From contig NC_134847.1 of the NCBI RefSeq assembly GCF_965363235.1, positions 63,916,144 to 63,980,143 on the forward strand: a DNA stretch of 64,000 nt. Reading direction: 5' to 3'. The position numbers and the translations under genes are program-made. Below, piece by piece: positions 2,378-64,000 of this stretch (positions within the stretch are counted from its first letter, which is position 1; each line of letters starts with the position of its first letter). The notes under the pieces are model-generated. The model did no database searches, was not told the origin of the DNA, and saw only the letters and a list, made by a program, of their open reading frames with translations. Origin of the DNA: Mytilus galloprovincialis. Its lineage: Eukaryota.

Positions 2378-2563
2378 TTAAGGTTTTTGTTGCTTAGACG
2401 TAAATACAGACCTTGAAATATTTTCAGCTTCGTGTATACTTTGAGGCAATGGCATATTTTTAGTCTCTGGAAGGGCAAACGATAGTAAACCAGCACAAAT
2501 ACCAAAAGCCCCAAATATTACCAGCGGTAAGGCAACACCAAACTTTGTATCAACCAATACACC
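2378..2563 (-). CDS. SLC22-like terminal coding exon 9 (TM12 + C-terminus; stop TAA at 2380..2378)
   Basis: The acceptor is aactttgtag|GGT. It encodes GVLVDTKFGVALPLVIFGAFGICAGLLSFALPETKNMPLPQSIHEAENISRSVFTSKQQKP*, where the SLC22 consensus is LPLILFA.L..LAA...LLLPETKG..LPET..DAEN. A weak internal donor TCAAG|GTCTGT might splice to a further exon, but the read-through stop is close. Confidence 0.75.
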   Translation of the reverse strand, partial: GVLVDTKFGVALPLVIFGAFGICAGLLSFALPETKNMPLPQSIHEAENISRSVFTSKQQKP

Positions 2564-2814
2564 CTACAAATATATGAAATGAATTTGCTGGAAATTAACT
2601 AATTATAATTGATACATGAAGAACCTGTGAAATGTGACTTAAAAGCTATCATTATTTATCTTATTTTATTCTAGGGTTATTCGTGTTCCTATTGTAATTC
2701 TGACTGTTAAATCTAACCTTCATTTTAGCATGCGTCTCATGTTTATGGATTTTTCATATTTCATTAAAGCAGGAAATTGAATGAGTTTTAAAAGTAAAAT
2801 TGGATTAGATTTTG

Positions 2815-2842
2815 GTAAAATCAAATATATATATATATATAT
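2815..2842. repeat. (TA)n microsatellite
   Basis: ATATATATATATATATATAT lies in the intron just 5' of SLC22 exon 8. Confidence 0.7.
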
Positions 2843-2930
2843 AAACATCTTGTCAAAATTTCTTTCCTCGTTTCGAAAAATGGTCACCACGAAAAAAGAT
2901 TGTAAAAAATCTCAAAAAACACATATTTAC

Positions 2931-3112
2931 CAAATCACCCACATATGCAGACACCATTGACCCAGCATACCCAGATGAGCTGCAAATTCCAATCGCAAAT
3001 GATCTGAGGTTAGTTGGGAAATTTTCCGCTACCATAAGATAAATATTAAAGTATGCCACCGTTATTGTGAGCTTTCCTATCATAGCTAAGGTTATCGTCA
3101 ACCAGTGAAGGG
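2931..3112 (-). CDS. SLC22-like coding exon 8 (TM9-TM11)
   Basis: The acceptor is ttttcatttgtctactacag|CC. It encodes (S)LHWLTITLAMIGKLTITVAYFNIYLMVAENFPTNLRSFAIGICSSSGYAGSMVSAYVGDL, where the SLC22 consensus is DLHWL...ELYPTVIR...G..S..R.GS..SP. The donor is GATTTG|GTAAAT. An alternative acceptor 60 nt upstream (gcaag|GT) was rejected because the protein alignment is poorer. Confidence 0.8.
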
Positions 3113-4412
3113 CTGTAGTAGACAAATGAAAATACGATAAAAACCATGTTATCATACCTTGCATACAAAGTTTTAGTCCGACGTGGTTTAAATGAATTTA
3201 AATACAACATAGATGCAAAGAAAGAAGTATAGACTTCCAAGTGCATTTAGGTATTACTAGCTATGTTCATTTTAACCCCGAAATGTTGATTGAATGAACC
3301 GTGTCATTGTTACTCCTTCTACATGGTTTGTCGTATCTACATGAAACTATATGCTATATGCAAATAAATTCGTGGATTAACATTCGAGTTCCATAATGAA
3401 TAGATATAAGTCATATTTTACAAAAGCCGAATTGATTATGAATTTAGCTTGTAAAATTCAGTTTAAAAATTATCAGTCTGAATAGTTATGTTTTTATCAT
3501 GATAGTTTATTTAATTGATTTGGATCAATGCAAAACCAGGTATTAATTCCAATGGGGCGATAGCAAAGAAATTGCGTATATATCTATGATCATATCACCT
3601 GATATCATTGATAACTATCAGAGAAATATATGATGAATTTAAAGAGCTAATGGTGGGAATGGAAAACGACGAAAAAGTATGTTATCTTAATGTGAAACTA
3701 CAAGCAATTTCAAGTATCTTCCAATTGGTGATATTAGTGCGAACCTAACTAAATTTTTCTACATTTTCATCTGCTATTGTTCAATCTATTTAAACTTTTT
3801 TTCAGTTCTGTTGTTTTATTGAGTGAATACAATAGCTATTGTTGTGTTTGTAGTTTATTCACCGGTACCTTTAATTTCTTTTAGCAAATAAAAGTTTGAA
3901 TAGATTGAAACTGTGGAAATGTTTCTTTTTTTTTTCATGCAGCTTGTGCATTTTAAAACGTTCGTTAAAAAAAGACAGACAGCAAATATGAAAAAAAGTC
4001 ATTGACTCCAAAAATCAAACAAACCACCAACGAATTATGTTATGATACAGAGTCTGGAAGCAAGTATATGTTGGGTCGCTATCAAGTGTACCTGATTATA
4101 AAAATGATAATCGTTTGCGTATATAAAGTTCCAAAAAGTTCACCTCCACTTATTGACAGTGAAAACTATACCATTTGTTTCACATCTATTAGACAAACGG
4201 AAAAGCGAAATGAATTGTACATAATATAATGCATTTGCAATCATCGATGGAAAATGTTCACATTGGTTTAACTCCTTTAAAAATACGTACGTTATCGGCA
4301 TGTCAAGAAAGCTCATATATACTAAAGTTATGTACTTAAGGGGCTTTTTCAGAAGTTTTATTATACTTTGATTGCAATTAAAGCTTTTGAAAGTGTTCTT
4401 AATTCTACTTAC

Positions 4413-4639
4413 ATGGGCCACCGTACAAAGATGAAAATATTGTACACAGGCAACCAATGCCACAGATTAACATAGAAGAACTGAATATTTTCTTTCTTCC
4501 AAGTCTTTCCACCACATAAAGACATACGAATAAGGCAATTACTTCAGCTGACGTGGATATTAAATAATTAACATAAACATCACCACCTAAGTTACCAACT
4601 TTCATTGTGATCCCAAAATAAGTCATACTTATTGAAAAC
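4413..4639 (-). CDS. SLC22-like coding exon 7 (TM7-TM8)
   Basis: The acceptor is tttaacag|G. It encodes (W)FSISMTYFGITMKVGNLGGDVYVNYLISTSAEVIALFVCLYVVERLGRKKIFSSSMLICGIGCLCTIFSSLYGGP, where the SLC22 consensus is LSLNVGNLGGNIYLNF...DRLGRR. The donor is CCCAT|GTAAGT. Confidence 0.9.
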
Positions 4640-5717
4640 CTGTTAAACATATTACAAGTTTATATTAAAATGCTACATTTTTATCATAACACAAGAAAGT
4701 CTACAAATATCAAGCAAACATTTAATAAAAGCAAGAACGATAACAAAATGAAAAGTTTTAAACACAAAACATACATCGTTAAACTCTATTGAGATGTCAG
4801 TGTTCACTGTTGACTTGATAATGCTTTTACTATTCCTTAGATTTTCGTTTATTACATAACTTATTGATGATGATGTAAGTTTTTAACGACATTGACTTGC
4901 TATAGAGCCCTTGCACGGTCGGTTTAAGGTTTTCGCGGTTGACAATAAATATACACGTAATTCAGTTATCCAATAAGTGTAATTGATGTGAAAAGAAATG
5001 CTTACTCCGTCAATTATAAAAGTGAAACTGCTGCGTCCACAAAGTGCCTTCTGTCTGAACAGAAAAAACTGAAAACGGCTAGAAATGGGCATGCAAATAC
5101 CGATTTTAAATCAGTGGATATTTTTTGGCTTTTTTTATATAAAAAATAAGATATGGTATGATTGCAAATAGCTATTCAACAATCGTAATACTTTCAAATA
5201 TGATTTATATCAATATTGAGGGAAATGTTTTTTTTTTTATTGCAATTCAATGAAAAATTGCTTTCCTTGGGCATGCCATGAAATGAATATACCGCTTGGT
5301 ATCATGGTCTCATGATGGCCTCGAGTGCATGATATCGTGTGCTCGATTTCATGTTGTTTCAAACAATATCCTTGACCTTTTAGCTACATTTCCGCTAAAT
5401 ATGCGTCCTTAAGTAGTAAGAACAGACTGATCAGTTCAAAGTCATAAGTATGTGTCTGGGTATGGTAACATGTCCAGCTGCTATATTTTAGCTTGTGAAA
5501 TTGCACGTTGCATATACGGCTTAGCATGTCGGTCAAATATAAAACTGGGTTCAAAGTCATATCACATTAAGACATTCTTGTCCTTATATGTACACAATAT
5601 TTGTCATCCGACGTTCAACAACAATTCTTTCACCCATGCTGCTATATCATGGCAATACATTGATTGATGTACATGCTGATTTACAAAGTGTTTATGTTAT
5701 TGTATCAAAGTACTTAC

Positions 5718-5942
5718 CAATTAAACATAAATATAGCCAATCGAACAGTAAGAACTTTTGTCTTGAAAAGCTCTCCGACTGTTGTACAAAATGCAACCTT
5801 TTCATGTTTTTCATCAACCTTAATATTCTGAATGTCAACGTCAAAACTAGCATTATTTTCTTTTGCTATATCCTTTAGAATCATTTCAGCTCTCGATAAC
5901 TTCCCCTTAGCTATCAGCCATCGTGGCGACTCTTTCTGGAAT
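5718..5942 (-). CDS. SLC22-like coding exon 6 (ESPRWL motif, cytoplasmic loop)
   Basis: The acceptor is cttcag|A. It encodes (L)FQKESPRWLIAKGKLSRAEMILKDIAKENNASFDVDIQNIKVDEKHEKVAFCTTVGELFKTKVLTVRLAIFMFN. The donor is AATTG|GTAAGT. Confidence 0.9.
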
Positions 5943-6360
5943 CTGAAGTATAGTATTTCTAAATATAATGATTTGCATTTCTAAGAGAAAACTGTGTGAG
6001 GGGCTAACAATTACGTGCGCTGTTCATTAGTATTTTGTCTGGTTTCTTTAACAATATTTTTTGTTAATACTTTTTTTCGCGTTAAGATATATCTATATTG
6101 TAAATTCTGCCTTCATGTTCATCATAATAAAACACAAATAAATGCTTTATTAATTTGACAGAAAGAACAAACGAAGAAAAACAATATAGTACTGTTCCTT
6201 GAATCTTTGTGTTTTCATGAACGAGTAGTGATTTTGTTTCTTGAAATGTTTTGCCATTTCCCTTCTTTTCCATAAATTGTCCAAAGTATTTTTATTATTT
6301 TATTGTATTCAAAATAAACTATTTAGTTGCTATGATTATACTTGATATATATCTACATAC

Positions 6361-6529
6361 AGTAATGAGGTGAGAAATATTCCAACAACTATTGATGTTG
6401 ACCAGCCCAGAATTCGCCAATCTCTGATAAAGTAGGCAAAAATTACCAGCACGTATTCTCCAATACAGAAGGAGAAATAATAGGCAAAGTTTGCAAACAC
6501 TCTTTTAGATGGATCCACCAATTCGGTAG
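6361..6529 (-). CDS. SLC22-like coding exon 5 (TM4-TM6)
   Basis: The acceptor is tttcgttctag|CT. It encodes (A)TELVDPSKRVFANFAYYFSFCIGEYVLVIFAYFIRDWRILGWSTSIVVGIFLTSL, in which AYFIRDWR is a near-invariant SLC22 block. The donor is ACT|GTATGT. Confidence 0.85.
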
Positions 6530-6890
6530 CTAGAACGAAAAACATTTAAACAGATGAATAGCGTTTATGCATTCAACATATTTATATCTTTCATATTGTG
6601 AACTGATATATTGTTCTTTTTTCGAAATGAATCATCCATCTGTTATAAAGGTACACGGAATCTTGCGCATAGAATAATAATAAGATTATTTATTGAATCC
6701 AATTGAAGGGCCCGTTTCTTGGCATAAACATTTAAGTAAGGTAAACAAATTACCAGCAGTACTTGTTAAATTTTACTGCTTCTCATTTTATTAATCTTCA
6801 AATTCGTTGTCATATTTCTGTTAGATTAACATTTAAACATATCCACCTAATCACATATAAAAACTGCGATATAAAATGTAAACAGCATAC

Positions 6891-7045
6891 CTAGAGTATA
6901 ACCTGACTGATACACGAGTATGCTGAAATAACCGTTCGCAAATATCAGGAAACCAACAAGTGGAAGAGACGAAACAAAAGACCTTATCAAATTTGGTAAC
7001 ATCATTCCTATAAGCGCTGTTGTCAATACGGGTCGTCTACCTAAT
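6891..7045 (-). CDS. SLC22-like coding exon 4 (TM2-TM3; D-R-x-G-R-R motif)
   Basis: The acceptor is aaattcag|A. It encodes (T)LGRRPVLTTALIGMMLPNLIRSFVSSLPLVGFLIFANGYFSILVYQSGYTL. The donor is CTCTAG|GTATGC. Phases link to exons 3 and 5. Confidence 0.85.
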
Positions 7046-9589
7046 CTGAATTTAAAAAATATATAATTCTGAGAGATTTGGTTACCAAATAAAAAAAAAA
7101 TCAGTTTAAACAGCATGGTTCTTCTAGTGCTATTAAACTAGTCAACAAACGAAACGATACAAGACTTTTTTTTTCGAATTAAAGATAAAGTTTTCCGTTC
7201 ATTGGACCAATATTGAAAGAAGTAATACTTAATCATTATGGAAATATAAATCCGTTTAAAAAAACATTTTTTTTTTCTTTGTGACGTTTTTTCGCAATTT
7301 TTTTTTTTTACAAAATTTACATAAAACGACAATTTTAAAAACAGAAGTTCCAACTAATGATGCCAACCTCTCATTTAAAGGTAAAGACAGTGTTTGCCAT
7401 CAATTTGTTTTTAAAAATCATACAGTTTCTTCGTTTATTAGTTAAGCAAAGTTCGGTCCCACGAGAAATCGTTAAAATGTATACATTATCAACTGATTTA
7501 CCATAGACAGTATGTGTAAAGTGATATTCAAAAAGCGGTAACAATCTTAAAACTAATCCGAAAGGTTCCAAATTTACTGTGTATTGTTTTCATATCTAAA
7601 GCATTGATTTGAGACGAAAATAAAAAAAAATTTTTTTGCAATTTTTGAGATTTCAAAAAACACTTTTTTTCCCAAAAATTAAAAAAAACAATATTTCAAC
7701 CCATTAGTTACAACATGAACATAATTTGATTAGCATATTGAATATTTTTAAACAAATTTGAAATTTTATTTAGTACTTAGAAAATTATGTGTCGATTTTT
7801 TATTCAACTTTCCGCAAAACTAATTTACACCCTATGATCGTTTACACGGAAATTAGATACTTTCCGAAAAGTTTTGATTTTCATTATCACATGTGCATAC
7901 ATTGCAAATGAAAGCTTTTTAAAATAGTGTATATCATTTTGTTTTATATGTAATACTTTTTGATAAATTTTATTTCAAAGTCGTGTATCGTTTCTTTTGT
8001 TGACTAGTTTTTTTAAGAAACATATTAACAATCACAATCAACAATGTAATTATGTCCTTAAATGTTGTTTTATTGGTAAACATATTGATTTTGTTATCAG
8101 TAAATTAAAACCAAATAAAAAGTCTGGTTATATACATTGGAATATTCACGATACCAGTAATTTGGCATTACACAAGGTCATTTGTCTCGAACTGCTAATG
8201 ACGTCTTTGCACTATATTCGTTGGATGTTGGATGTGTACAGTTTGATATTTTAGTCTTAGATACATAATGTTTTATTATGTGTTATTGGCTTTCAATTAA
8301 CTATCAGTGACTGAGAGTATTCTCAGATTTGTACTTTGTGTATATTTTTTATTGCGGGATATAATTTGGATCGATTTGATGAATAAAACACTTTTCAGGT
8401 GTTTTTTTTATAGTTTGTTCTTATGTTATCCGTTACACCTCTGTCCCAGGTTAGGGAAGGGTTTGCGGTTTAAAACATATCTACCGCCACTTTCTGTATG
8501 TGTATGTACCAAATCAGGACCTGTTATTCAAAGGTGTTCGTTTGTTACTGTATATCAAATTTTGGTTTCGTTCATTAATTTGTACATGAACAAGGCCGTT
8601 AGTTTTTCTCGTTTTAATGGTTTTCATTTGTCATTTAGATGCATTTATAGCTACCTATGGAATATGGTTTTGTTCATTGTTGAAGGAAATAGGGTGACCT
8701 ATAGTTGTTAACTTCTATTTCATTTAGTCTCTGATCAATTGTTGTCTTATTGGCAATTATAACACAGTAACTTTTTTTATAATATATGCGATAATTAATG
8801 TCTTTTTTATTTTTAGCCATGCCGTTGTCAGTTTATTTTCTATCTATGAGTTTGACTCTCCCACTGGTATCTTTCGCTCCTCTTTTAGTCTGGCTAAAAT
8901 ATAATAACACTCTAGAGACAATACAGCAATTAGCATTGTGATTCCAAATCTTCAAATATGATAATGGCGTACATTTCAAATTAGATTAAAAAAAATCGGA
9001 TTTCAGTACTATTTTTTTACTATTATTTGATATCTCAAAAATCCTTTAGTACAAAATTATTCAAGAGTTTAGACTTAAAGTATCAATTGCACCATAACAT
9101 CTTCTTTTTGATATTTCTCTTGCATGCTTTTCATGCTGAGCGTATGATTGGTCTCAGTCTATGGAAGAAGCGTATCGATAAAAACTTTTCTTATATCACA
9201 TAGCGATATTGTCTAATATCAATTGTAAATATGCAGACATTCCATGCGCAAAATGTTGTTTTCGGCAACGAAAAATTAAGAAAATACTAACTTTAAAACT
9301 TATTGTTCAAATGTAAACAACAATTGAGTCTAAATATACATTCAGAAGTTAGTTAGAAGCTCAAGTTTATGTCCGTGTAAAATTTGAAGTGCTGTGTTTT
9401 TCTTATATACATAAATAAACAAATGATATTAGTTCTTATATCAATGCGATACTTTTAAAATATCAAAGCGGTGTTTTTGTTATATCAATATTAGTACTTA
9501 TTAGTATTAATATTAGACTGCTGTACCCATATTTTGACAATTTTACCTATTATGTCTGTTTTGTTCACGCATCGTTGTAAATATGACAG

Positions 9590-9800
9590 AATGTGATGAG
9601 ACTGTCATACACGTGAGAGGTTAAGCGCTATAAAACCAGGTTCAATCCACCATGTTCAAATTTGAAAATGCCAGTACCGAGTCAGAAATATGACAGTTGT
9701 TATCGATTCGTTTGGTGTGTTTTATCATTTGATTTTACCATTTGATAAGGGACTTTCTGTTTTGAATTTTCCTCGGAGTTCAGTATTTTTGTAATTTTAC
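9590..9800 (-). mobile_element. Family B repeat, partial (reverse orientation)
   Basis: It is the reverse complement of the ACTGAACTCCGAGG...CCAAACGAATCGATAACAACTGTCATATTTCTGACTCGGTACTGGCATTTTC...GAACCTGGTTTTATAGCGCTTAACCTCTCAC blocks. Confidence 0.65.
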
Positions 9801-10184
9801 TTCTTAATAGTATTGTTTGTAAATAAGCAGTTTTAAGATCATTACTTAAATTCAAATTGTTTTTGATAACATCTTACAAATTTCTCAATTGGTTTTGGAA
9901 GCAAAACTAATCAAATAAAGGTTTACAAACAATATCGTAATCAAAGAGCTAAGTATCAAAATGATTGTTCACATACATAACATTTAGCAATTTTTTTAAT
10001 GAACGCACCGAAATAATATATATCCGATATTCTCGCAACACACGCATGGATGACTTTCTTTATTGATAACAATGAAACTAACTTGTGACAAAGATGAATC
10101 ATACTGATCTCGTTCAGATAGATTCGACAAAATCTGATCTGCATTTTTTAATCTCCTTTTTAATACAAATTAGACCTTGGTTTT

Positions 10185-10335
10185 CCTGTTTGAATGGTTT
10201 AACACTAGTAATGTTTTTGTTCCTATATAGCGTGGTGTTCGCTGTGTGCCAAGGCTCCGTGTTTAAGGCCATACTTTGATCTATAATGGTTTACTTTAAA
10301 CAATTATTACTTTGATGGAAAGTTGTCTCATTCGA
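10185..10335 (-). mobile_element. Family A repeat, diverged 5' fragment (reverse orientation)
   Basis: Sequence: GCCAAGGCTCCGTGTTTAAGGCCATACTTTGATCTATAATGGTTTAC...GGAAAGTTGTCTCATTCGAACTCATGCACCATCTTCTTATAT. Confidence 0.5.
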
Positions 10336-12333
10336 ACTCATGCACCATCTTCTTATATCTATAAATCTTTTTTAAAAAATCCCCTTATAAATAACTACTT
10401 TCCAGTCCTCAAACTGAACGATCTACATTTATAAATATAGAAAAGATATATACACATTTCTAACGTCAAAAGACATTTACATCTTATTTATTTGTGTTCT
10501 TAACATTTTTTTTTAGTACTCATTGAAGAAATGACTTTATAACAAGCTATACGGATTGTTATTTTGCACCAAGAAATGTTCGCGTATTTATACGATCGGT
10601 TACTAGTCAAAAACGAAAGGCAATCTCTGTGACAACAATACATCGGAATGCCCTCACGGTCATCGCGATGTAAAATAGCGTCCACGCGGCGAGCTGATTA
10701 TGTTCATAGAGATTTCGATTTACCAACAGGAAAAGTCTTTGATATATAAAAAAAAAAAAAAAAAAGAACTGTTTTCCTTCTCAATATTTTGCTCTATGTT
10801 AATAATAAATACATTTTCTGTTTGACAAGATTTTTGATTTTCATTGTATCTGAAGTTGTCCAATTTATAGTCTGAGGCTACTCAGTTGGTATCTTCAAAG
10901 TTCGGGACATCAGCATTTGTGCATCTTAATTTGTTTGGATTATTTATTTTACCATTTGAATATTCATTGTAATTTGGAGCTGTATTTGATTGGATTGTTT
11001 GATAGAATTTTTCTTTTAAGTAATGATATTTTTTTGTCTATTTCGATATTACCAAGGTGGATAGGCTATAGCAGTGTGACCAGTATATTAGAATCTAATA
11101 GGTCGGTAGACTATTTGCAACCACATTTAAATTCCACCATTGCATCATCACTTCAAATAGAATTAGTCGGTTAAACCAATGTGTTTGAAAACAATAGACT
11201 GATCAGGTTGTTAACACTTTCAACTATTAATAGGGTCAAGCAACATTTTCGAAATGATAAGTTTATATAAGCGTTAATTTTGCCACAGTTACGAAATTTT
11301 AGTGATATTGACCCTAAAACATTAAACAAGTCATGATCTAAGTTTGTGAATTATGTTTGCAGTTTTCTTGACATGCATTGTGACGTGTCATCGTATTCAT
11401 TTTATATTAGAAAACTATAGCAGTTATATTATAAAAAGTATCGCATTCATAAATTTTTGATATAACAAAATCATCGCTATGATATAAGACCAATATCGCA
11501 TTGATATAATAAAATATAGCAGTATCTTTGACTTATAGGTGATTTTGGCTTAGCAAACAATTGAATTGCTACATGATATTTATAGAATGTGTACACCTAC
11601 AAATGATAAATCGTGCATTTATGTTTCATTTAATCAACAGTTCAATTTTCTCGTTTAAATACACCTTGCTTGTTATTACATAAATAATTCATGGAAATTA
11701 TACACCAGACGTATGTCGTGTTAAATGTCACCCTGTTTTAAGAAAAGAGTCTTTACTTTATGCCGAGAAATCTGCCTTTCTTCGTACAAATGCTAACATT
11801 CGTCTGAAATTTCCCACAATGCAACTCGTTGATATAAGACAATATCGCTCGTTGATACAAGAAAAGTTTTTATCGAATCGCTTCTTCCATAGACTGGGTC
11901 TAGTGAAGAGCCATTTCATTTGAAATCATACGGGCAAAATCTTATAAAATGAGTTTTAATTTCAAGGGCGCATCGACCTGTGAAGTCAAGTGCCCAGTTT
12001 TTTAACTAAATTTCACGATTTTGAATATGACACTCTTGTATTTACATCTACATTTTACAAGTCGACCTTTATAACTATATATTCTCATGTGCGCGGGTGA
12101 TAAAAAAATGAGGTTTGTCATCAGATAGCCCTACGACGCATGTATCTATATAGTGCAAATCATAATATTAGCAGCGCTTAAGTTCTGAAGGTTTTGTGAT
12201 GTTGATGATTTGTTTAGTGTTAGACCTTTGCTTTCTTTTTGTCTGTGTTGTCTTTTGTTGCCATGTTATTTGTTATTCTTTTCAATTTTTGTGTACTCTA
12301 TACGACTGCAGATCGACTAGTGTGCATACGTAC

Positions 12334-12437: not shown

Positions 12438-12916
12438 CTGAAAAATGGTAATGCATGAATAATTTGTAATGCAAGCACTAACTGTAACTAACAATTTGAC
12501 TGTAAAATACTAATTTACAAATAAGTTTTTTTGTGTTGTGAGCAAACTGCTTGGTTTACAATCTTTATGTTGTTGTTTTCGTTGACTGTTTAACGTACAT
12601 ATTCTTTTGCTATTCGGCATGTTACGTTTCATCCCACTTCTTTTTTAATGCACCAGTCCTAACACAGGAGCATGTTGTTCACTGATTGACGTCGGTGTGG
12701 TTCATATATAAGTGTTTTTGTTTCATTTTTTTTTATATTCAATTCAATTCAAAGTTGTATTGCCATATAAACTATACAGTTTGTGACATATAACAACAAC
12801 AAAAACAAATAAAGACAATTACTAAGTAACTCAATATATATACACAAATTCAGGTAAATATTAAAGGGTCCCCTGTCCTCAGTTCCATTGACTTTTTATA
12901 AAGGATCCTAGTTTAT

Positions 12917-13789
12917 TCACTTGTGTTGGTGTTGATGGGTTAAGTATATATATATAACTTTGTCATTGTCAGTGAGATTAGCAAATGAATTACTTTCTCT
13001 GTTAATGCAATTAAAATATGTTAATCTAATATTTGAATTATGAGAACAATTTATTAAGAAATGTTTCTCATCATCTAGTACTTTGCATTTTTTGCAAAGT
13101 CTTTCTTCGCGAGGAATTTTAAAATGCCTTCCTTTTTCAATTAGTAATGAATGGTCACTGATTCTAAGTTTTGTAATTAATTTTCTAAATTCAAAGTTTG
13201 GGTTAGAGAGGTAAGGTTTGATCAATAGATTTGGCTCAAGTCCTTTATAAAAATTTAATTTACTTTTATCGTCAATAGATTTCAACTTATCCATCAACAG
13301 GTTGTTGTAATATGAGTTTATTTGGGGTTTAATATAGCTTTTAATATTTTTTAATTGTTTTAAATTATTACAGGTTTTTGGTCTATCTATATCAATGTTA
13401 GATTCAGAAAGAATATCTTTTGCAAAAGTGAACCATGAATAGGAGCCACTAGAATCCAAAGTTTTAGTTAATTGAAAAGATTTATGTAATAAGGGATTCA
13501 AATTTGAGGTAAAAAGCCTTGCTAAATACATAATAGTTTGGGTTTTTATATGACATTCAATAGGCAGTCTTCCCAATTCGTTCCTTGTACCAAAATTTGA
13601 GGCACTCTTGTTAGTGCCAAGGGTAAACTTGCAATAACCAAGATAAAAGTTTTCTATTGGAGTCTTGTCAATAAAATTAAATGGGTCCACAGTTTTTCCA
13701 GAAACCAAAGCTCTTTTTTTAGCTTTGAAATATGTTATATATGAGTCCAAATATGTTATCTCAGAATTATAAGTTAATATAGGTCTCAC
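12917..13789 (-). mobile_element. 5'-truncated non-LTR retrotransposon (LINE) fragment: ORF2 C-terminal region
   Basis: A 290-aa ORF ends ...ISDHSLLIEKGRHFKIPREERLCKKCKVLDDEKHFLINCSHNSNIR. This is the C-x2-C...H-x4-C zinc-knuckle tail typical of the CR1/L2/Jockey-type ORF2 C-terminus. No intact RT domain lies upstream. It sits in the intron between SLC22 exons 2 and 3. Confidence 0.7.
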
Positions 13790-14087
13790 TAATATGTAAA
13801 GATCAAACAGTTGTTTTGAATTGCTTTACACCAGTCCGATTGGGGCCTTAAAATATCTTGCTACTCTATGTAAGCCAATATTCCGATGTAAGCCAATATT
13901 CATTGTTGAAGGCCATACTTTGACCTATAATTGTTTTAGTTTTATACATTGTGACCAGGATCTTATACATTAAGATTTTCTTTAATAAAATGTGTTTACA
14001 TAAACAATCAACACGTTCGAATGCATATTTTTAGTTAAAACGAAATTGAGAAAAGTAACATTTTAGAATTATTTTATAGAAGTACCC

Positions 14088-18795: not shown

Positions 18796-19680
18796 GTGTG
18801 TCTGTATGTCCGGCGTCCACATGTTGCACCATAACTCGAGAACCGCTTATCCACATTTCATGAAACTTCATCTAGTTGTTTCTTATGATTGTCAAACGAT
18901 CTGTATACTTTTTGGTGAAAATAGGATTTAAATTTCTTGAGTTACGAGACTTTATAACTAAAACAGAGGTGTGTATTTTTCACATGTCGCGCTGTATCTC
19001 AAAAACGATTTCTGATTTTTGCTTTAAACTTCACACACTTCTTAATTATAATAATCCAAAGATCTGTATATTTTTGTTGATGATTCAAAATTTTGTTTTG
19101 GAGTTAATAATGAGTTCTTTGTAAAAAAAGAGGAGAGGGTTCACATGTTGTATCGTATTTTAAAAACCATTAATGACTATTGCCTAAAACTTAACACACT
19201 TCGTAGTTATATTAATCTTTAGATCTTGATCTTAATATTTTTTAGTGATGATTCAAAATTTTATTTTAGAGTTATTGAGATTTTTGTAAAAAAAAAAGGG
19301 GGGGGGTCACATGTCGCACCATATCTCATAAACGATTTATGATTATTGCTTAAAACTTTACACACTTCTTAGTTATATTAATCTAAAGATCTGTATATTT
19401 TTGTTGATAATTCAAAATTTTGTTTTGGAGTTAATGAGTTTTTTTGTAAAAAAGAGGAGAGGGTTCACATGTTGCATCGTATTTTAAAAACGATTAATGA
19501 CTATTGCCTAAAACTTAACACACTTCGTAGTTATATTAATCTTTAGATCTTGATCTTAATATTTTTTAGTGATGATTCGAAATTTTATTTTAGAGTTATT
19601 GAGTTTTTTGTAAAAAATTGCGCCGTATCTCAGAAAATATTTATGATTATTGCATAAAATTTCTCACACAAGACAAATGG
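18795..19680. repeat. Tandem satellite array of about 5 units of 170 to 180 bp, with a two-variant (about 350 bp) higher-order structure, 0.3 to 1.2 kb upstream of SLC22-like exon 1
   Basis: The alternating unit types are ...TTTGCTTTAAACTTCACACACTTCTTAATTATAATAATCCAAAGATCTGTATATTTTTGTTGATGATTCAAAATTTTGTTTTGGAGTTAAT...GAGGAGAGGGTTCACATGTTG... and ...ATTAATGACTATTGCCTAAAACTTAACACACTTCGTAGTTATATTAATCTTTAGATCTTGATCTTAATATTTTTTAGTGATGATTC(A/G)AAATTTTATTTTAGAGTTATTGAG.... Each is present at least twice, nearly identically. Confidence 0.75.
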
Positions 19681-49849: not shown

Positions 49850-49960
49850 CATCCCTCATATATTCATATTTACCGAACTCCAAGGAAAATTCAAAACGGA
49901 AAGTTCTTCTTCGAATGGTAAAGTCAAAAGCTCAAACACATCAAATGAATGGAAAACAAC
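49850..49960 (+). mobile_element. Family B repeat, left half of a copy split by the 4.7-kb long-TIR element
   Basis: It runs CCGAACTCCAAGGAAAATTCAAAACGGAAAG...CACATCAAATGAATGGAAAACAAC and then breaks at 49960/49961. The continuation AACTGTCATATTTTTACTTGGTACAGGC resumes at 54655. Confidence 0.7.
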
Positions 49961-52900
49961 CAGGGCCGTAAGTACCATTGAGGCAAATGAGGCAAATGCA
50001 TGCCTCATGCCGGAAATTAAAAAAAAAATGAAAAAAAAAGATTGTCTTTTATCAAATTGTTTTCACAGAAAGTGTCTTGCAAGAGGCAAGCTCTATTCAC
50101 TCCCTGATGTCGCCCCTGCATTTTTTCCGTGATCCATTTTCTATTTTACTTTTGGTTTTCGGAGTTGATGGTCTATTGTTTGTACTTCTGTGTCTCGGGT
50201 TTGTATTTGTTCTTTTATTGTCCTACTTTATGACTATAGTCTGAGTGTTGATTTTCATTTGTAAACGTGTGCAATGTTAATGTTGCATGTCTGATGTCCA
50301 GATATAGTGTGGGAAAATATTTTAAGAATATGCTCTACGACAAAAATTGTTGACTTGTATCTGCATGGATAATTGAACTTGATATCAAAGAATACAAAAC
50401 TGTCTTATTTGTATATTAAACCACAGGTCTGGGCATATGATACAGATATTTTTTTTATTTTTTTGTTGTTGATTAAGATATTCAATTTTCTATATATTAA
50501 TAATACATATCTATCACTTTTGTGCGTGTCTCACCTAGTTTCGAGTGATTTAAACGACTTAGAGAACTGAAATACCCAATTTTTCTTAGTATGGATGGTA
50601 AAATTGGGTATTTTCTCGGAGTCGTTTAAATCACTCGAAACTAGCTATATATAGGTGAGACATGCACAGAAGTGATAGAAGATATGTGTTATAAATATAG
50701 AAAAATGACTATTTTAATCGACAACAAAAAATAAAAAAAAAGATATCTGTATCATGTACCCAAGCGCCTATAGCTCTCATGGTTTAAATTAAAGTAAGAC
50801 CACCAATTTCCTGGTATCAAATTATTTAAAAAAAAAACCAACAATGTATTGCTATATGACCTTTTACATTGAAGGGTTAAACTTGCATTAAGTCGTGTTC
50901 AGACAGAAAATAAAGGAATATGGAGTAACCTTGCACGGGACCTAATCGCACACAAAGTCAATGCATAGAAAAAATACTAATGATCAATGGTCAAAATTTG
51001 TATTCCTATTCTTCATCTTGATAGTTGTTGGAGGGTCTTCAATAATAAAAGATTAGAATCATTAATTCTGTAAAAGAAGGTCAAGATGGTCCCTAGTGTC
51101 GACTTGAGCAGTACTAGTACTTAAAGTATAATACTGCACTGTCGCAAATTTAAATCTTGTCATTAAAAAAAATCATCAAAGTCAGCACAATACAAGACAA
51201 GAGCAGACAGACTGAACCGGTATTAATGATTATGAGAAATACGATTTTTACTTTATCCTACATATTGGTCTTTTTATGTTGCCCCTAAAACCTAAAATGA
51301 ATCTATGTTTTTGCTTTGAGACCAGAATATTATCGAAAAAAATAGCTAAAGATGATTTGCGTTTCAATATAAGAAAGAGTCCGTGGAATGCTCAGAATGC
51401 ACGAATTTGCGATATTTTTTCACAGTTTCTGGGGGCCTTGAGCAACCCCCAGACCCTTCGCCAAAAATTTTCAGCTTGCTCCGCTCGGCGAATATATTTT
51501 GCCTCACTATTAACAGTATATGGGCGTTTTTCAATAAAACCGTATTTTCTTGTCCCAGCCACTTTAAAAAAAAATATGTTTGATCTTTGCAAGTAATTTT
51601 TTGTGCAGTCAGTACATTGAATAAGATTTAACATTTTTAAGCAAAGAAACAGTTTATTTTTAGAGGAATTAATAAGATATTGACTCCTGAATGGTCCAAA
51701 ACAACCAAAATGGCATGTCCCTAGACCGCCTGTTCAACATTCATACTCTAAAATATCGTAAAAAAATGAAGAAATAAATGTTATTTTTACTTTACATAAG
51801 TTCTTTAATAATTCAAAAGTATGTTCAGTGCCAACATATTTTAATAAACAGCTTTAAATATCGGATTTTTAATTTCAGAAGGTGTGTCCCTCACAAAATG
51901 TCCACTACGAAACGAAGTCTTTAAAATTTGCCAATAAACAGTTTTATAAAATCAATGTAATTTTTGTTTGCAAGAGATATAAACATTAGGGTCTTACAAA
52001 AGAAGTGATGCTTTTATAACGGCAATTAAATTGTTGGTAAGAAAAATTGAGCACATCAAATGGACCAGAGTGATACCGTATTTTTGTTAATGTCCACTAC
52101 GAAACGGGTCAAATCTCCTTCAGTATCTGGTTTTAAAATTATGAAAAAAATATCAGTGTACAGCTTAATAAATGCTTTGATGAATACAATCAGTCTTGTT
52201 ACTATTGCAATATAGGGATTGTGGGGGAAAAAAATAAAACATGCGAATATGTCCCCTACGAAACGGTCCCCTACGAAACAAGTATGGGAGAAAAACGTTT
52301 CGTAGTGGACACTACCACTACCATGCAGTCTTTTTTTAATCTTTTTTCAATTATATTCGTGCAAAACAAATAACAAGGGTTAGTTTCATGTAATTTTTAT
52401 TATGTTTTTATTAACATATAATAGGGTTGATGTCAACTACGAAACTTTTTGTCCACTACGAAACGGTTTTGTCCACTACGTAACGCATCAAAATGTCCAC
52501 TACGTAACATGAGTTGAACCTTCATATGTAAAGTACTGTCTAATCTTTAACGTTAAAAATGGTTTTCCAATTCAGAAAAAATGAGATTTTCTAGTATTTA
52601 AAGTAAACAAACTGGAATGTCTATAGGAAGCATTTAAAATTGCAAAAAATATGTGTGTTTAGAAGAATTTTCGTAGAGGACAAAAGTCCCCTACGAAACA
52701 GTACACAAATTATGAAAATAATATCATTTCAAAGAATATTTAAGATTGCACTTTTTGTTTACAAACAGGTCTATAATAGAAGTATTCAAAATAACTCTTG
52801 AAATTAAATTTTAGACATGTCAAGTTGATTTTCCATTTTTTTAGGTCTGAAAGTTACGCTTTTATTGAAAAACGCCCATATATGTGTCAAGACATGTAGA

Positions 52901-54654
52901 TTCCGCACCCATAATATTCCAAATATAGTCAGTTTAACTTATTATTCATAGTATTAATTAAGTGACTCGAGAAATTCACATAATAAAATAACTCAAGCAG
53001 TTGCTGTTCAACCCATATGCAAATGATATCAAGAACCATGGACAATATGATTGATATGACGGATAGTAATGCCTCGCATACTGCGACGAAAAGGCGTGAC
53101 AAAAAAAAACGACAAAAAAATAGAAAAAGGTTGCCGAAATATTGAAGCTATAGAGTATATAAAGAACTTATAGAATAATCATATTCAAATCATATGCAAA
53201 ATAAATAAAGAATGGAGAAAAATTGTTAAAACAGGGCCGTAACTAGCCCCTTTTAATACTGAGGCAAAATATGTTTGCCGAGCGTAGCGAGGCGAATTTT
53301 TTTTTGGCGAGGGGCTTGGGGCCGCTTTTAAAGGCCCCCAGAAGCTCTGAGAAAAATAACGCAAAATCGTGCATTCTGAGCGTTTCCCGGACTCTTTCTT
53401 ACATAGAAACGCAAATAATTTTTAGCTATTTTTTCGACAAATCATAATTCTGGTCTCAAAGCAAAAACATAGATTCATTGTTATTTAAGACTTTTAGGGA
53501 AATTCAAAACATTAAAAGAGCGATATGTAGGATAAAGCAAAAATCGTAATTCTTATGATCATTAATACCGGATCTGTCTGTCTGTTCTTGTCTTGTATTG
53601 TGCTAACTTGAGATTTTTTATGACTAGATTTAAATATAGTGACAGTCATTAGTGCAGTAATATACGTTAAATACTAGTACTGCTCAAGGCGACACTAGGG
53701 ACCATATTGACCTTGTTTTACGGTATTTATGATTCTTTCATAATGGAAGACCCTCCAGCAACTATCAAGATGAAGAACAGGAATAAAAACTTTGACCATT
53801 GATCATTTGTATTTTTTTCTATACATTGACATTGTGTGCGATTAGCTCCCGTGCACGTGTACTTCATATTCCTTTATTTTCTGTTAAAGGGTCTAAACAA
53901 GAATTAATGCAAATTTAACCCTTGAATGTAAAAGGTCATATGGCAATACATTGATGTTTTTTTCAACAAATGATTTGATACCGGGAAATTGGTGGTCTTA
54001 CTTTAATTTAAACCATGTCAGCTATCTAGTTTTATCCACAGGTGCTTGGGTATATGATACAGTTTTTGTTGTTGTTTTGTTTGGTTATGATATTCAATTT
54101 TCTATATTTATAATACATATCTATCACTTCTGTGCATATCTCACCTACAGAAAATACCTAATTTTGCAATCCATCCTGAGAAAAATTGGGTATGGTTTTA
54201 TATACAAGAAAATCAGTTTCGCAGAAACGACCACTTTTTTCTGTGTCCAGTAGCATCGTATATTCTTAAAATATTTTCTCGCATAATGCCTGGACATCGG
54301 TGGACATGCAACATTACACAGTGTGACACGTTTACAAATGAAAATCAACACTCAGACTAGTCATTAAGTAGGAGAATAAATGAACAAAGACAAACCCGGG
54401 ACACAGAAGTAAAAACAATAGACCATCAACTCTGAAAACCAAAAGTAAAATAGAAACATGGATTACGAAAAATATGCAGGGGCGACATCAGAGAGTGAAG
54501 AGAACTTGCTTCTTGCAAGACACTTTCAGTGAAAACAATTTGATGTGAAGACAATCATATGAAGAAAATCTTTTGTTTTTGTTTTAGTTTTTTTTTTTTG
54601 AAATTTAAAACATGAGGCATTTGCCTCATTTGCCTCAATGTAGTTACGGCCCTG
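49961..54654. mobile_element. 4.7-kb long-TIR palindromic non-autonomous element (termini CAGGGCCGTAAGTAC...GTAGTTACGGCCCTG) with a 5-bp TSD ACAAC
   Basis: The outer arms 49961..50385 and 54225..54654 are reverse complements. Nested inverted arms lie at 50760..51600 and 53230..54020. An internal hairpin module occupies 50400..50575 / 50585..50760 and is repeated directly at 54035..54180. The core 51600..53230 is unique. The element sits inside a family B SINE copy, with ACAAC duplicated at 49956..49960 and 54655..54659. Intact SINE copies carry a single ACAAC at the corresponding site. Confidence 0.75.
51890..52710. other. Cluster of at least 9 copies of a 14-nt motif GTCCACTACGAAAC (variants GTCCCCTACGAAAC, GTCAACTACGAAAC, GTCCACTACGTAAC) in both orientations
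   Basis: Occurrences are near 51899, 52092, 52252, 52268, 52297 (reverse complement CGTTTCGTAGTGGAC), 52430, 52449, 52471, 52496 and 52685. All lie in the unique core of the 4.7-kb long-TIR element. Confidence 0.6.
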
Positions 54655-54760
54655 ACAACTGTCATATTTTTACTTGGTACAGGCTTTTCCTCATGTAGAT
54701 TATTATGGCTTAGCTAGCTAAACCTCTAACTTGTATGACAGTCGCAAAATCTGCATTATT
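54655..54760 (+). mobile_element. Family B repeat, right half of the split copy
   Basis: Sequence: ACAACTGTCATATTTTTACTTGGTACAGGC...GCTAGCTAAACCTCTAACTTGTATGACAGTCGCAAAATC. Confidence 0.7.
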
Positions 54761-60606: not shown

Positions 60607-62029
60607 CTGTAATATCTATCAGTGGAACTCAGAAGCACAAATATATATATGTTATAATAACACTTTATTTTAGACAAAACCCAACACCCTTGATATTAAA
60701 ACTGTACTCAGTCGCCTTTTGCAGATAATTACATAATATGGGTGTTCTCAGAGTTGGAGGCCACTTACGGTGACATATAGTTACTTTCAACGTCATTTTA
60801 ACTCTGCTGGTTAGTTTTCTCAATGACTTTCGTCATGATCGTACCACATCTTATTGTATACAAATAAGAGTTCTATCCATCATAAACTAACAGTGTTGTT
60901 ACAAAACGATAGACACCATTGACGTGACATTATTGGTCGGTCGATGATTATTTCAGTGTATCCAAAGTAATGGTAGATTTATCTTCAGTGCTTCTTGTCA
61001 TTTTAAACATTACCTTATTTGAAATATTATCGGATATGACCAACTACCAAAATGTGGAGTTCTAATGCTGAGATTGATACGCTTATATTTGAAAGCAGTT
61101 AAAGTTTATGTTGACAGTATTATGCATTGCTTTAAGGTCGTGTGTGCTGTTTTTGATATATATAGCTTTGAGTCCGTCTGTTTTTGTTGGTCCGTGCATC
61201 TGTCTCATTGATTTTGCTTTGTCACATTCGTTTATTGTTTATTGCATTTTCTAGTTTTCCAGTTTTAAAATGCGTATACCCAAAATATAATTCAATGAAG
61301 AAAAAAATATGTATGAATTACCCTACCAACCTTTTGATAAAATTGTACATCCCTCTGTCAAAGCACCTACAAATACAAAATGTATTGCCTAAAATAAAGT
61401 CAAAATCTCTGGTAAAATCAAAATCAATAGATAAAAGTTGCTGCGAGAACCGAATTTTATCTAATCTATTATTATTCACTTTATAAAAAGAAGTTTTTTT
61501 TTGTTTTTTTTTTAACTTTGATATACAAATATATATGTCCTTTTACTTCTATGCTGTTTTCTGAGGTTTAATTCCTTAATGTGTGTGTCAATCATCACTA
61601 CCTCATAAAATATCCTGGAATTACTTTATTCAAATTATTATTCTTCTGTTTCAATGAATTGCAACAGGTTCTTTTTGACACCCGTTAGCGTATCTAGATA
61701 TGTAGAGTGAACAATACGAATAAGGGTAAACTCATAACTTTTTATGAAAATGGATAGAAAAAGTAATAAGGGATGATTATTTTACAATTTTTTATAACCA
61801 GTTTTTAGAAGTCTAATCAACAGAATGTAGAAAATAGTTGTCTTAAATCTTGGATAAAACAAACGATGAAGCTTCTAATATACTCTTTCACTTTCTTTTA
61901 ATTAATCAATCAATTAGTTGAAAAGTAGGTACAAAATATAAACAACATACCGATTGATACACAAACGGCTTATATTCAAGTGTTGAATTAATCTCATCCC
62001 CCAAAAATATAAAAACCTAATTTCTTACT

Positions 62030-62355
62030 TCCACATATCAGAGTATTTGTAAATATGTCCTACGTAATTAGGTCCTTCTGGTGGAACAATGCCACAAATC
62101 CTGGCCACTACAGACGGCAGACCAAATAACACCCAGTATTTTATCATAAAGAAATGGCCTTGACAATATCCAATTCCCCATAAAGTCCACTGGTCAATGT
62201 TTTCTAGAGTAGACACATTATTTTGAAATGCATTGACATATAAGAAGTGAAGAATGAATTCAATGAAAAATGTCCAGAATATCACCCTTGTTGCTTGGAA
62301 TGCTATAGATTTCAGTTCCGATGCTTTTAAAGTTTTCTTTTCGGATTCGTTCATC
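62030..62355 (-). CDS. HHAT-like (hedgehog acyltransferase-like, MBOAT family) internal coding exon
   Basis: The acceptor is tttatttttag|ATG. The track ORF 62025..62354 is offset by 1 nt from my count on the printed sequence. It encodes MNESEKKTLKASELKSIAFQATRVIFWTFFIEFILHFLYVNAFQNNVSTLENIDQWTLWGIGYCQGHFFMIKYWVLFGLPSVVARICGIVPPEGPNYVGHIYKYSDMWK. This is collinear with the human HHAT region ...DSLKASL...LGGLALAQVLFFYVKYLVLFGVPALL...RCVSTMFSFTGMWR. The donor is TGGAA|GTAAGA. Confidence 0.75.
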
Positions 62356-62465
62356 TAAAAATAAAATAAATTGTTAATACTTGCTATTTTTGTGGATTTT
62401 GCCATTTAATTTACACAAAAAATAGCGCTCTTTGTTTGGGTAAACACTTCGCAAAAACATTAATA

Positions 62466-62520
62466 ATACTTGGATGGAGAGTTGTCTCATTGGCACTCAT
62501 ACCACATCTTCCTATATCTA
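62466..62520 (-). mobile_element. Family A repeat, 55-bp 5'-terminal fragment (reverse orientation)
   Basis: GGAGAGTTGTCTCATTGGCACTCATACCACATCTTCCTATAT is the exact reverse complement of the family A 5' end. Confidence 0.6.
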
Positions 62521-63257: not shown

Positions 63258-64000
63258 TTAGAAATTGTTTACTGCCCTACATACATTGTAATTGTTTACT
63301 GTCATGTATACATAGTAATTGTTTACTGTCATGCATACATTGTAATTGTTTACTGTCATGCATACATTGTAATTGTTTACTGTCATGTATACATTGTAAT
63401 TGTTTACTGCCCTACATACATTGTAATTGTTTACTGTCATGCATACATTGTAATTGTTTACTGTCATGTATACATAATAATTGTTTACTGTCATGCATAC
63501 ATTGTAATTGTTTACTGTCATGCATACGTTGTAATTGTTTACTGTCATACATACCTTGTAATTGTTTACTGTCATGTATACATTGTTATTGTTTAATGTC
63601 ATGCATACATTGTAATTGTTTACTGTCATGTATACATTGTAATTGTTTACTGCCCTACATACATTGTAATTGTTTACTGTCATACATACCTTGTAATTGT
63701 TTACTGTCATGTATACATTGTTATTGTTTAATGTCATGCATACATTGTAATTGTTTACTGTCATACATTCATTGTAATTCTTTACTGTCAAGTATACATT
63801 GTTATTGTTTAATGTCATACATACATTGTAATTGTTTACTGTCATGTATACATTGTTATTGTTAAATGTCGTGCATACATTGTAATTGTTTACTGTCATG
63901 TATACATTGTAATTGTTTACTGTCATGTATAAATTGTAATTGTTTACTGTCATACATGCATTGTAACTGTTTACTGTCATGTATACCTTGTTATTGTTTA
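63258..64000. repeat. 27-bp minisatellite array (unit GTCATGCATACATTGTAATTGTTTACT), at least 27 units, continuing past the window end
   Basis: The period of 27 was verified from successive GTCATG positions (63301, 63328, 63355 and so on). A period that is a multiple of 3 explains the 138, 219 and 240-aa repetitive ORFs called in several frames. Confidence 0.85.

Follow-up and report, generated by a model that had tools for sequence, protein, structure and literature searches.

An 11-copy array of a 14-nt motif, a candidate protein-binding-site array, in the centre of a nested non-autonomous element of a mussel genome

RESULTS

Organization of the locus

The window, meaning the whole 64-kb stretch of DNA that was analysed, contains a long inverted-repeat structure and, between its arms, a shorter non-coding element that carries the motif array. 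Their parts are as follows, with the strand given where one applies.

49956-49960: candidate 5-bp target-site duplication of the outer structure, ACAAC, with its partner at 54655-54659
49961-51516 (+): left arm of the long inverted repeat, outer terminus CAGGGCCGTAAGTA
51517-52882: nested non-autonomous element with the motif array, 1366 bp, non-coding, with a 28-bp inverted repeat at its ends
51517-51544 (+): left terminal inverted repeat of the nested element, TATATGGGCGTTTTTCAATAAAACCGTA, 27/28 complementary to 52855-52882
52855-52882 (-): right terminal inverted repeat of the nested element, 28 bp
52883-53231: spacer from the nested element to the right unit, 349 bp, unique, with no match elsewhere in the window
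53250-54654 (-): right arm of the long inverted repeat, outer terminus CAGGGCCGTAACTA at 54641-54654

The long arms are about 81-82% identical to each other, with indels, and a third copy of their terminus word lies at 53232-53245 (+). The outer structure starts with CAGGG and is flanked by a 5-bp, not an 8-bp, repeat. The ends of the nested element match at 27 of 28 positions, whereas the long arms are about 81% identical, and the 20-mer core of its terminal repeat occurs at only two places in the window, which are the two element ends. We conclude that the nested element is the younger one, having inserted into an older inverted-repeat structure between its two arms, and that it is very probably a separate, independent repeat to which the motif array belongs.

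The longest stop-to-stop frame in the nested element is 96 aa. All ten frames of at least 38 aa, searched as one concatenated sequence, gave no homologue at E <= 1e-3 among 5.8 billion proteins, and Rfam reported nothing at gathering score for the element, with one chance-level match at E < 1. A coding or RNA explanation of the motif region was therefore ruled out, as there are neither long frames nor an Rfam family; an alternative genetic code for the window was likewise rejected, since translation with code 4 is also devoid of long frames. The terminal 93-94 nt of the element fold no better than shuffled sequences (z = +0.6 and +0.7). The CpG observed/expected ratio of the window is 0.90, and because this means almost no depletion, CpG retention is unusable here as a sign of selection.

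The motif array

Scanning both strands of the 64-kb window for GTCCACTACGAAAC with at most two mismatches gave 11 matches, all at 51900-52699 (four perfect, six with one mismatch and one with two), and none outside this interval. Shuffled sequences gave a mean of 0.20 matches and a maximum of 2. The dense cluster that had been noticed in the sequence-only reading is thus real, and 'at least nine' copies, the count given there, holds as a minimum and falls short of the 11 found. It had also been right about both orientations, nine copies being on the + strand and two (52297 and 52668) on the - strand, and about the absence of the motif from the rest of the window, where no other abundant repeat contains it. 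With a position weight matrix derived from the copies, the 11 sites score 20.6-31.7 bits and stand clear of the next best site in the 64 kb (7.6 bits). The copies, together with a second recurrent box and the micro-tandem arrays detected by TRF, are listed below.

51900-51913 (+): motif copy 1, perfect GTCCACTACGAAAC, identical in contig L006 (see below)
52092-52105 (+): motif copy 2, perfect, identical in L006
52136-52155 (+): second recurrent box, AAATTATGAAAAAAATATCA, 19/20 against 52707-52726, z = 5.0 against shuffles
52251-52279: micro-tandem array, 15 bp x 1.9
52251-52264 (+): motif copy 3, GTCCCCTACGAAAC, first unit of the 15-bp micro-tandem pair
52266-52279 (+): motif copy 4, GTCCCCTACGAAAC, second unit of the 15-bp micro-tandem pair
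52297-52310 (-): motif copy 5, perfect, inverted, forming an inverted repeat with copies 3 and 4
52431-52485: micro-tandem array, 20 bp x 2.8
52432-52445 (+): motif copy 6, GTCAACTACGAAAC
52451-52464 (+): motif copy 7, perfect, in the 20-bp micro-tandem array
52471-52484 (+): motif copy 8, GTCCACTACGTAAC; L006 has the consensus GTCCACTACGAAAC here
52495-52508 (+): motif copy 9, GTCCACTACGTAAC
52668-52681 (-): motif copy 10, GTCCTCTACGAAAA, inverted, two mismatches
52686-52699 (+): motif copy 11, GTCCCCTACGAAAC
52707-52726 (+): second copy of the AAATTATGAAAAWAATATCA box, 19/20 to 52136-52155

A weaker third copy of the AAATTATGAAAAAAATATCA box lies near 52637-52655. Inverted copies create two potential hairpins. 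Copy 5 can pair with copies 3 and 4, from which it is 17-30 nt apart (DNA hairpin over 52245-52316, z = -4.7), and copies 10 and 11 stand head-to-head with a 4-nt spacer (z = -6.1).

The copies are alike only across the motif, where their mean pairwise identity reaches 91%; the 19-nt flanks are at 27-28%, and chance gives 28% there. The three most dispersed copies are identical at 14/14 positions. High information content is restricted to the 14 nt plus a T at -1 and a G at +1, which gives a fuller consensus of about 16 nt, TGTCCACTACGAAACG; variation is tolerated at position 5 (A/C/T) and position 11 (A/T). The motif does not resemble the terminal repeat of its element, and the spacers between copies are AT-rich and mutually unrelated.

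Start-to-start spacings of 192, 159, 15, 31, 135, 19, 20, 24, 173 and 18 bp agree in essence with the irregular 16-200 bp reported earlier. The accompanying statement that this is not a simple tandem repeat stands for most copies and needs qualification for two stretches (52251-52279 and 52431-52485), which are the only micro-tandem arrays that TRF found in the motif region; outside them the copies are dispersed. Neighbouring copies share variant bases, with C at position 5 in those at 52251 and 52266 and T at position 11 in those at 52471 and 52495. These shared bases indicate that slippage, not selection, made at least three of the copies. However, a lag-identity scan and pairwise local alignments of the inter-motif spacers revealed no periodic or pairwise homology beyond one 20-nt box, and hence the dispersed copies are not leftovers of a decayed longer repeat. 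An ancient repeat of about 160-190 bp in which only the box stayed conserved was rejected on the same scans, and a satellite or other head-to-tail repeat of constant period is ruled out by the two inverted copies, the irregular spacing and the lack of a periodic lag.

A second copy in a metagenome contig

Positions 2045-3096 of the marine-metagenome contig L006 correspond to 52571-51518 of the window with 97% identity over 1055 bp. The homology stops at 51518, the outer edge of the left terminal repeat, and the 169 bp of contig flank beyond the element have no similarity to the window's long arms. All nine comparable motif copies (9/9) are kept in L006, with order and orientation unchanged, and the sole difference inside a motif turns copy 8 into the consensus; retention of the motif in other copies of the element was thus borne out in the one copy found. 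This sequence comparison shows that the motif array travels with the nested element. The sequence-only reading had placed the cluster in the unique core of the element with long terminal inverted repeats; that placement fails, since the cluster lies in a nested element with its own 28-bp ends and L006 has it without the arms.

L006 is a contig of 2.7x coverage that is chimeric at its other end, and may for these reasons be a mosaic of several element copies. Differences from the window fall on 1/126 motif bases and 31/927 other bases, a contrast that is not significant with two copies (Fisher p = 0.16). The motif-bearing zone at 51890-52520 diverges by 1.1%, and the left 371 bp diverge by 5.4% (Fisher p = 1.4e-4, with zone boundaries picked post hoc, after the data had been seen).

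One copy of the nested element was found in the window and one among all metagenome contigs scanned. Scans of viral contigs for a motif-pair pattern, for the 16-mer and for the terminal repeat of the nested element yielded at most single chance matches, and the terminal repeat was absent from them. Matches in prokaryotic genome contigs and seven other metagenome matches were discarded as GC-rich bacterial tandem repeats (32-44 bp) that contain the word by chance; these are mostly from Planctomycetes and have no further similarity to the nested element. For the 14-mer in either orientation and for the terminal repeat, the literature yielded nothing but unrelated primers, for MSI2 and others.

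Transposon class of the nested element

With inverted-repeat ends and no coding capacity, the nested element has the features of a non-autonomous class II (TIR) transposon, and homology between loci ends at the terminal repeat, as seen in one extra copy and at the left end only. The flanks, at the window junctions and at that of L006, permit either a TA duplication (element TGGGCG...CGCCCA) or an ATAT duplication (GGGCG...CGCCC), which are not separable from the repeat sequence because both words are palindromic. A TA flank, such as a Tc1/mariner/pogo duplication would leave, is present at both window ends and at the left L006 end, with the same ambiguity with ATAT. No 3-, 8- or 9-bp duplication fits the flanks.

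Other classes were rejected. A strict MITE, which is small (below about 800 bp) and present in high copy number, is excluded by the size of 1366 bp. Members of the hAT superfamily have 8-bp duplications and short YARNG termini, both of which the nested element lacks. For CACTA/En-Spm, the ends read TATATGGGCG instead of CACTA, TA or ATAT takes the place of a 3-bp direct repeat in the flanks, and the array is not subterminal. A Helentron-associated element (HINE, DINE-1 or pearl-like) does not fit the TATATGGGCG ends, the TA flank, the lack of a terminal hairpin and the mostly non-tandem central repeats.

DISCUSSION

The 11-copy array is best read as a candidate protein-binding-site array of some kind, to which we give a probability of about 0.7 from the sequence pattern. 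The array would comprise 11 recognition sites of about 14-16 nt that all serve the same sequence-specific DNA-binding protein. This protein would most likely be supplied in trans by an autonomous partner, as either a transposase or an accessory DNA-binding protein, and may assemble a transposition complex or regulate the element, in parallel with maize En/Spm TNPA on its 12-bp repeats. That the binder is the element family's own protein is put forward tentatively, with slightly less than an even chance; no autonomous partner, transposase or binding protein was found in the sequences scanned. Cooperative or dimeric binding would be possible at the tight clusters and at the two inverted pairs. 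The array probably grew in part by local slippage, as micro-tandem neighbours carry the same variant base. A binding-site array on a transposon is a familiar kind of feature, not a new one, and the general idea of transposon-borne binding sites, already raised from the letters, is still the best reading; their supposed subterminal placement did not survive, as the nearest motif copies lie 383 bp (left) and 183 bp (right) from the element ends.

CACTA elements provide a precedent for binding by the family's own protein. Their TNPA-like proteins bind reiterated direct and inverted subterminal motifs (PMC2613891). Like the arrays of En/Spm and Tgm, the present one repeats a short motif (12 nt or slightly more) many times, as direct and inverted copies at irregular intervals; stem-loop potential, non-autonomous carriers and a motif of which one half is GC-richer and the other AT-richer are further points in common (PMC2613891). 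However, CACTA arrays lie within the terminal few hundred bases, whereas the array described here occupies the central 800 bp of its element and is not mirrored at the element ends, 9/11 copies having the same orientation. Classical sites of transposases or accessory proteins are subterminal. The central array, together with terminal repeats that contain no motif copy, therefore weakens the classical transposase-site model. In Ac/Ds, a hAT system, subterminal clusters of the hexamer AAACGG in both orientations are bound by the transposase. Short reiterated motifs in both orientations are common to Ac/Ds and our array, in which several copies end in GAAACGG; this resemblance of GAAACGG to AAACGG is probably a coincidence.

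An alternative is a platform for a host factor, in which a transcription factor or an architectural protein would use the site cluster as an enhancer, promoter or insulator-like module. Such a module may have been captured by the element, or may be a relic of the regulatory region of its autonomous ancestor, and would then have been dispersed by transposition. The central position of the array and the motif-free terminal repeats are in favour of this explanation, as are the dense, sharply bounded sites amid unrelated AT-rich spacers and the finding that the central zone is the best conserved between the window copy and L006. However, the element is non-coding and lacks any gene of its own that such a module could control, and to our knowledge the motif fits neither the CTCF nor the CENP-B box consensus. 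On these sequence features we regard a host-factor platform as somewhat unlikely.

A specific form of the host-factor explanation is suggested by the gypsy element of Drosophila, in which about a dozen Su(Hw) sites of 12-14 nt lie within a few hundred bases with AT-rich spacers. Gypsy is an LTR retroelement, its Su(Hw) sites are all in one orientation, and the binder is a host zinc-finger protein. As in gypsy, the array is interior to a mobile element, not at its ends, and is spread by transposition; a similar insulator reading is compatible with an array that lies centrally, not subterminally, and with sites that end sharply at 14 nt. Unlike gypsy, the carrier here is a non-coding DNA transposon, the sites have two orientations, and they are putative. 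By this analogy, a mussel DNA transposon that scatters roughly a dozen sites, to be bound by an architectural or transcription factor of the host, as a counterpart of the gypsy Su(Hw) insulator array, is a doubtful prospect.

The array may also be a by-product without sequence-specific function, in which a short unstable repeat expanded through replication slippage and small rearrangements. Two genuine micro-tandem arrays in the motif region and the same variant base in neighbouring copies agree with this origin, and a 162-bp tandem repeat elsewhere in the window indicates that such repeats are present in the genome. Non-autonomous elements with internal repeats are, moreover, well documented in bivalves (PMC5139131, PMC4067079). 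The pearl family, DTC84 and CvA have head-to-tail monomers of about 150-170 bp or microsatellites (PMC5139131, PMC4067079), and HINEs have 12-15-bp subterminal repeats with T runs, TT insertion, a 3' hairpin and central tandem repeats (PMC4067079). Like these modular elements, ours is non-coding, has a repeat-filled middle with micro-tandem stretches and resides in a bivalve host (PMC5139131, PMC4067079). Unlike pearl elements and HINEs, its unit is 14-16 nt and mostly dispersed, its ends are true terminal repeats of 28 bp with a TA flank, and a terminal hairpin is lacking. Satellites of BIV160/Cg170 type have monomers of about 160 bp with two conserved sequence boxes in common (PMC5139131). 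Some motif spacings, at 159-192 bp, match such a monomer in length, and the element likewise has a second conserved box, but the spacers are not homologous.

The by-product origin is unlikely for the array as a whole. Slippage that leaves the flanks behind cannot yield inverted copies or copies 135-192 bp apart, and the spacers have no periodic homology. The motif is 91% identical among copies whose flanks are at chance level (27-28%), the three most dispersed copies agree at 14/14 positions, and with non-periodic spacers plain duplication and decay therefore fails for the dispersed copies.

It is highly improbable that the motifs belong to the long-inverted-repeat element at 49961-54654, whether as subterminal binding sites of a transposase or as its functional core: this outer structure resembles an inserted unit, with matching termini (CAGGGCCGTAA.TA) and a 5-bp direct repeat ACAAC, but both long arms are motif-free, the motifs lie in a nested element with better-conserved ends (27/28 against about 81%), and the motif region is present in L006 without the long arms.

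Our results correct the annotation of this locus, which consists of an older inverted-repeat structure and a younger, separate element nested at its centre that owns the motif array. If a host factor binds the sites, the element would exemplify regulatory or insulator modules carried by transposons, in a group from which none is known. DNA transposons of molluscs are poorly described, and should the family's own protein bind the sites, the element would provide a defined cis-sequence with which an uncharacterised bivalve transposon system may be found and tested.

The motif cluster

A search of the whole window for the 14-nt motif GTCCACTACGAAAC with at most two mismatches returned 11 matches, all within 51900–52699 (four perfect, six with one mismatch and one with two), and dinucleotide-preserving shuffles gave a mean of 0.20 and a maximum of 2. 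The cluster is a real, non-random feature, which the sequence-only reading had placed correctly and, with its count of at least nine copies, somewhat understated. Nine copies lie on the plus strand and two on the minus strand (52297 and 52668); the core word CTACGWAAC occurs 10 times in the window, always inside the cluster, and start-to-start spacings are 192, 159, 15, 31, 135, 19, 20, 24, 173 and 18 bp. Under a weight matrix derived from these copies, the 11 sites score 20.6–31.7 bits and the runner-up in 64 kb 7.6 bits; therefore, the 64 kb holds no degenerate additional copies. Information content is high solely across the 14 nt, the T before and the G after, which widens the consensus to about 16 nt (TGTCCACTACGAAACG), with variation tolerated at positions 5 and 11.

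The nested element and its second copy

The cluster had been assigned to the unique core of an element with long terminal inverted repeats. This long inverted repeat is real, and between its arms lies a 1366-bp unit (51517–52882), the nested element, which is bounded by its own 28-nt repeat and encloses the entire cluster.

Outer structure and nested element (window coordinates)
49961–51516 and 53250–54654, left and right long arms, about 81–82% identical, with indels
Both ends of 49961–54654, matching outer termini CAGGGCCGTAA(G/C)TA
49956–49960 and 54655–54659, ACAAC, 5-bp flanking direct repeat
51517–51544 and 52855–52882, terminal inverted repeat of the nested element, 28 nt, 27/28 matches
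52883–53231, unique stretch between the nested element and the right unit, 349 bp

The match between the 28-nt repeats far exceeds the identity of the long arms. Metagenome contigs were scanned for pairs of motif copies no more than 30 nt apart, and among the eight loci recovered only L006 is related to the nested element; this marine metagenome contig (ENA ORXM01018674) is 3265 bp long and has 32% G+C. L006 2045–3096 aligns to window 52571–51518 (97% over 1055 bp). Homology ends where the 28-nt repeat ends on its outer side, and no similarity to either long arm was detected in the 169 bp past this edge. The stop at the repeat edge and the unrelated flank show that the nested unit is a repeat in its own right, with ends of its own, and that it occurs at a second locus where the long arms are missing; it postdates the arms and is inserted between them. 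Given its own repeats and this copy without arms, the cluster had been ascribed to the wrong element.

L006 1–2066 encodes a bacterial RsmF-type 16S rRNA methyltransferase of 468 aa (Pfam PF01189, E = 2e-41), which is readable solely with TGA as a sense codon and joins the mussel-like repeat at about 2045–2070 (coverage 2.7x). The gene is that of a TGA-recoded bacterium, which argues that the contig is very probably an assembly chimera at this end, although gene and repeat may instead be truly juxtaposed. The left junction can still be trusted to mark a repeat boundary, since it falls within 1–2 bp of the 28-nt repeat edge; reads from several element copies may have been merged in L006.

Retention of the motif in another element copy, as envisaged from the sequence, was observed: all nine copies of the shared region are kept in L006 with order and orientation unchanged, and the sole change within a motif is GTCCACTACGTAAC to the consensus. 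Window and L006 differ at 32 of 1053 positions, with 1/126 motif bases changed versus 31/927 other bases, a difference that is not significant between two element copies (p = 0.16). The lower divergence of the motif-bearing zone 51890–52520 (1.1%, versus 5.4% for the leftmost 371 bp; p = 1.4e-4) depends on boundaries chosen post hoc and may reflect mosaic assembly.

The nested element is non-coding. Its longest frame has 96 aa, its frames of at least 38 aa, all concatenated, have no homologues among 5.8 billion proteins, and it has no Rfam match. Flanks at both loci fit a TA and an ATAT duplication equally, both words being palindromic, and no 3-, 8- or 9-bp target duplication fits the window and L006 junctions. 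Family membership was tested on terminal sequence, duplication length, terminal hairpin and tandem central repeats. CACTA, hAT and Helentron-associated (HINE/DINE-1/pearl) membership were each ruled out on these defining features; TA-targeting Tc1/mariner-type membership is possible.

Among the papers searched, the 14-mer and the terminal repeat turned up only as unrelated primers. Tandem arrays with a unit of about 32–33 bp (GGGACTCGTCACCTCGTCCACTACGCAACTAA and variants) contain the same 14-mer in Planctomycete genomes and lake metagenome contigs (L010 5350–5730; L011 4400–4560; also L002, L003 and L012). Beyond this word the arrays, which are GC-rich, do not resemble the mussel element, and in collections as large as those scanned such sharing is probably a coincidence.

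In the outer structure, the terminus word CAGGGCCGTAA occurs a third time at 53232 (+), which points to the right unit, 53232–54654 (1423 bp), being a complete short element. On this reading the left arm would be an inverted second copy of the right unit, minus the inner 18 bp, and the long-arm structure may be made up of two units, mobilised by their outer ends. The left arm also has its own 333-bp palindrome (50430–50762, 77% self-complementary), of which the right arm has one half only (54036–54147); it is an inverted duplication or hairpin-like insertion specific to the left arm.

Anatomy of the array

Features of the array (window coordinates; copies numbered 1–11 from left to right)
52251–52279, micro-tandem array, 15 bp x 1.9
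52431–52485, continuing to 52508, micro-tandem array, 20 bp x 2.8
52668, minus strand, inverted copy head-to-head with neighbour 52686 across 4 nt, single-strand fold z = -6.1 versus shuffles
52297, minus strand, inverted copy facing copies 3 and 4 across 17–30 nt, single-strand fold z = -4.7 versus shuffles
52136 and 52707 (19/20), second box AAATTATGAAAAWAATATCA, with a weaker copy near 52637, the sole shared spacer sequence

Adjacent copies within the micro-tandem stretches carry the identical variant base, which indicates slippage there; copies outside these two stretches are dispersed. Mean pairwise identity of the 11 copies is 91% inside the motif versus 27–28% in the 19 nt on each side (chance 28%), and apart from the second box no pairwise or periodic homology was found among inter-motif spacers. 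Chance-level flanks and unrelated spacers argue that the dispersed copies are not relics of a longer decayed repeat, and just these 14–16 nt seem to have been maintained, or specifically created, by something.

Other features of the window

The window has 31% G+C, almost no CpG depletion, no tRNA or Rfam matches and few long frames under any genetic code. By eye, exon-like frames resemble an SLC22-type organic cation transporter (about 1–12000) and an MBOAT/HHAT-type acyltransferase (60700–62500, near 61–62.5 kb). The acyltransferase-like exon is 96–98% identical to Logan contig peptides from runs SRR29152242 and SRR29152237, and contigs of the same runs match window 61.0–62.5 kb at 97.3–97.7% nucleotide identity, introns included; the one paper found to cite this run series concerns Mytilus galloprovincialis gill metagenomes (PMC11729891). 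Judged by this proximity of accessions, a Mytilus species is the most likely source of the window.

A tandem repeat at 18979–19642 (about 158–166 bp x 4; higher-order period 324 bp, 92% identity) has a monomer size typical of bivalve satellite-like repeats in pearl or Helentron-type elements. The minisatellite at 63263–64000 (27-bp unit, at least 27 copies, 87% identity) extends past the window end and gives rise to long but spurious open reading frames on each strand. A 302-aa frame at 12712–13825 (-) looks by eye like the C-terminal part of a non-LTR retrotransposon protein; Pfam gives no match for the frame itself, and PF00078 reverse transcriptase is present in its more distant homologues (P0018, P0025 and P0029; 32–57% identical). 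ENA marine metagenome, Logan and NCBI contigs (L015, L016) hold copies that are 92–98% identical in protein and 95–96% in nucleotides; this repeat family belongs to the same host and was recently active.

Possible function of the array

The best-supported reading of these sequence features is that the array, carried by a non-autonomous DNA transposon, would serve as a recognition-site cluster for a single sequence-specific DNA-binding protein. The general proposal of a binding-site array in a transposable element was reasonable, with the wrong element named and the subterminal label misplaced: the array is central, no copy comes closer than 383 bp to the left end or 183 bp to the right end of the nested element, and none lies in the terminal repeats. 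The binder would most likely be a protein that the autonomous partner of the family provides in trans, on the precedent of CACTA elements, whose reiterated direct and inverted motifs are bound by TNPA-like proteins (PMC2613891).

The central position, the ends without sites and the lack of mirror symmetry at the two ends, with 9/11 copies oriented the same way, count against the classical subterminal model, and they leave substantial room for the array being a platform for a host factor. Gypsy carries such an array, of Su(Hw) sites. Pure slippage would account for three or four copies but leaves the dispersed and inverted copies with chance-level flanks unexplained. The nested element is of a known type, a non-autonomous DNA transposon whose interior holds an array of short motifs.
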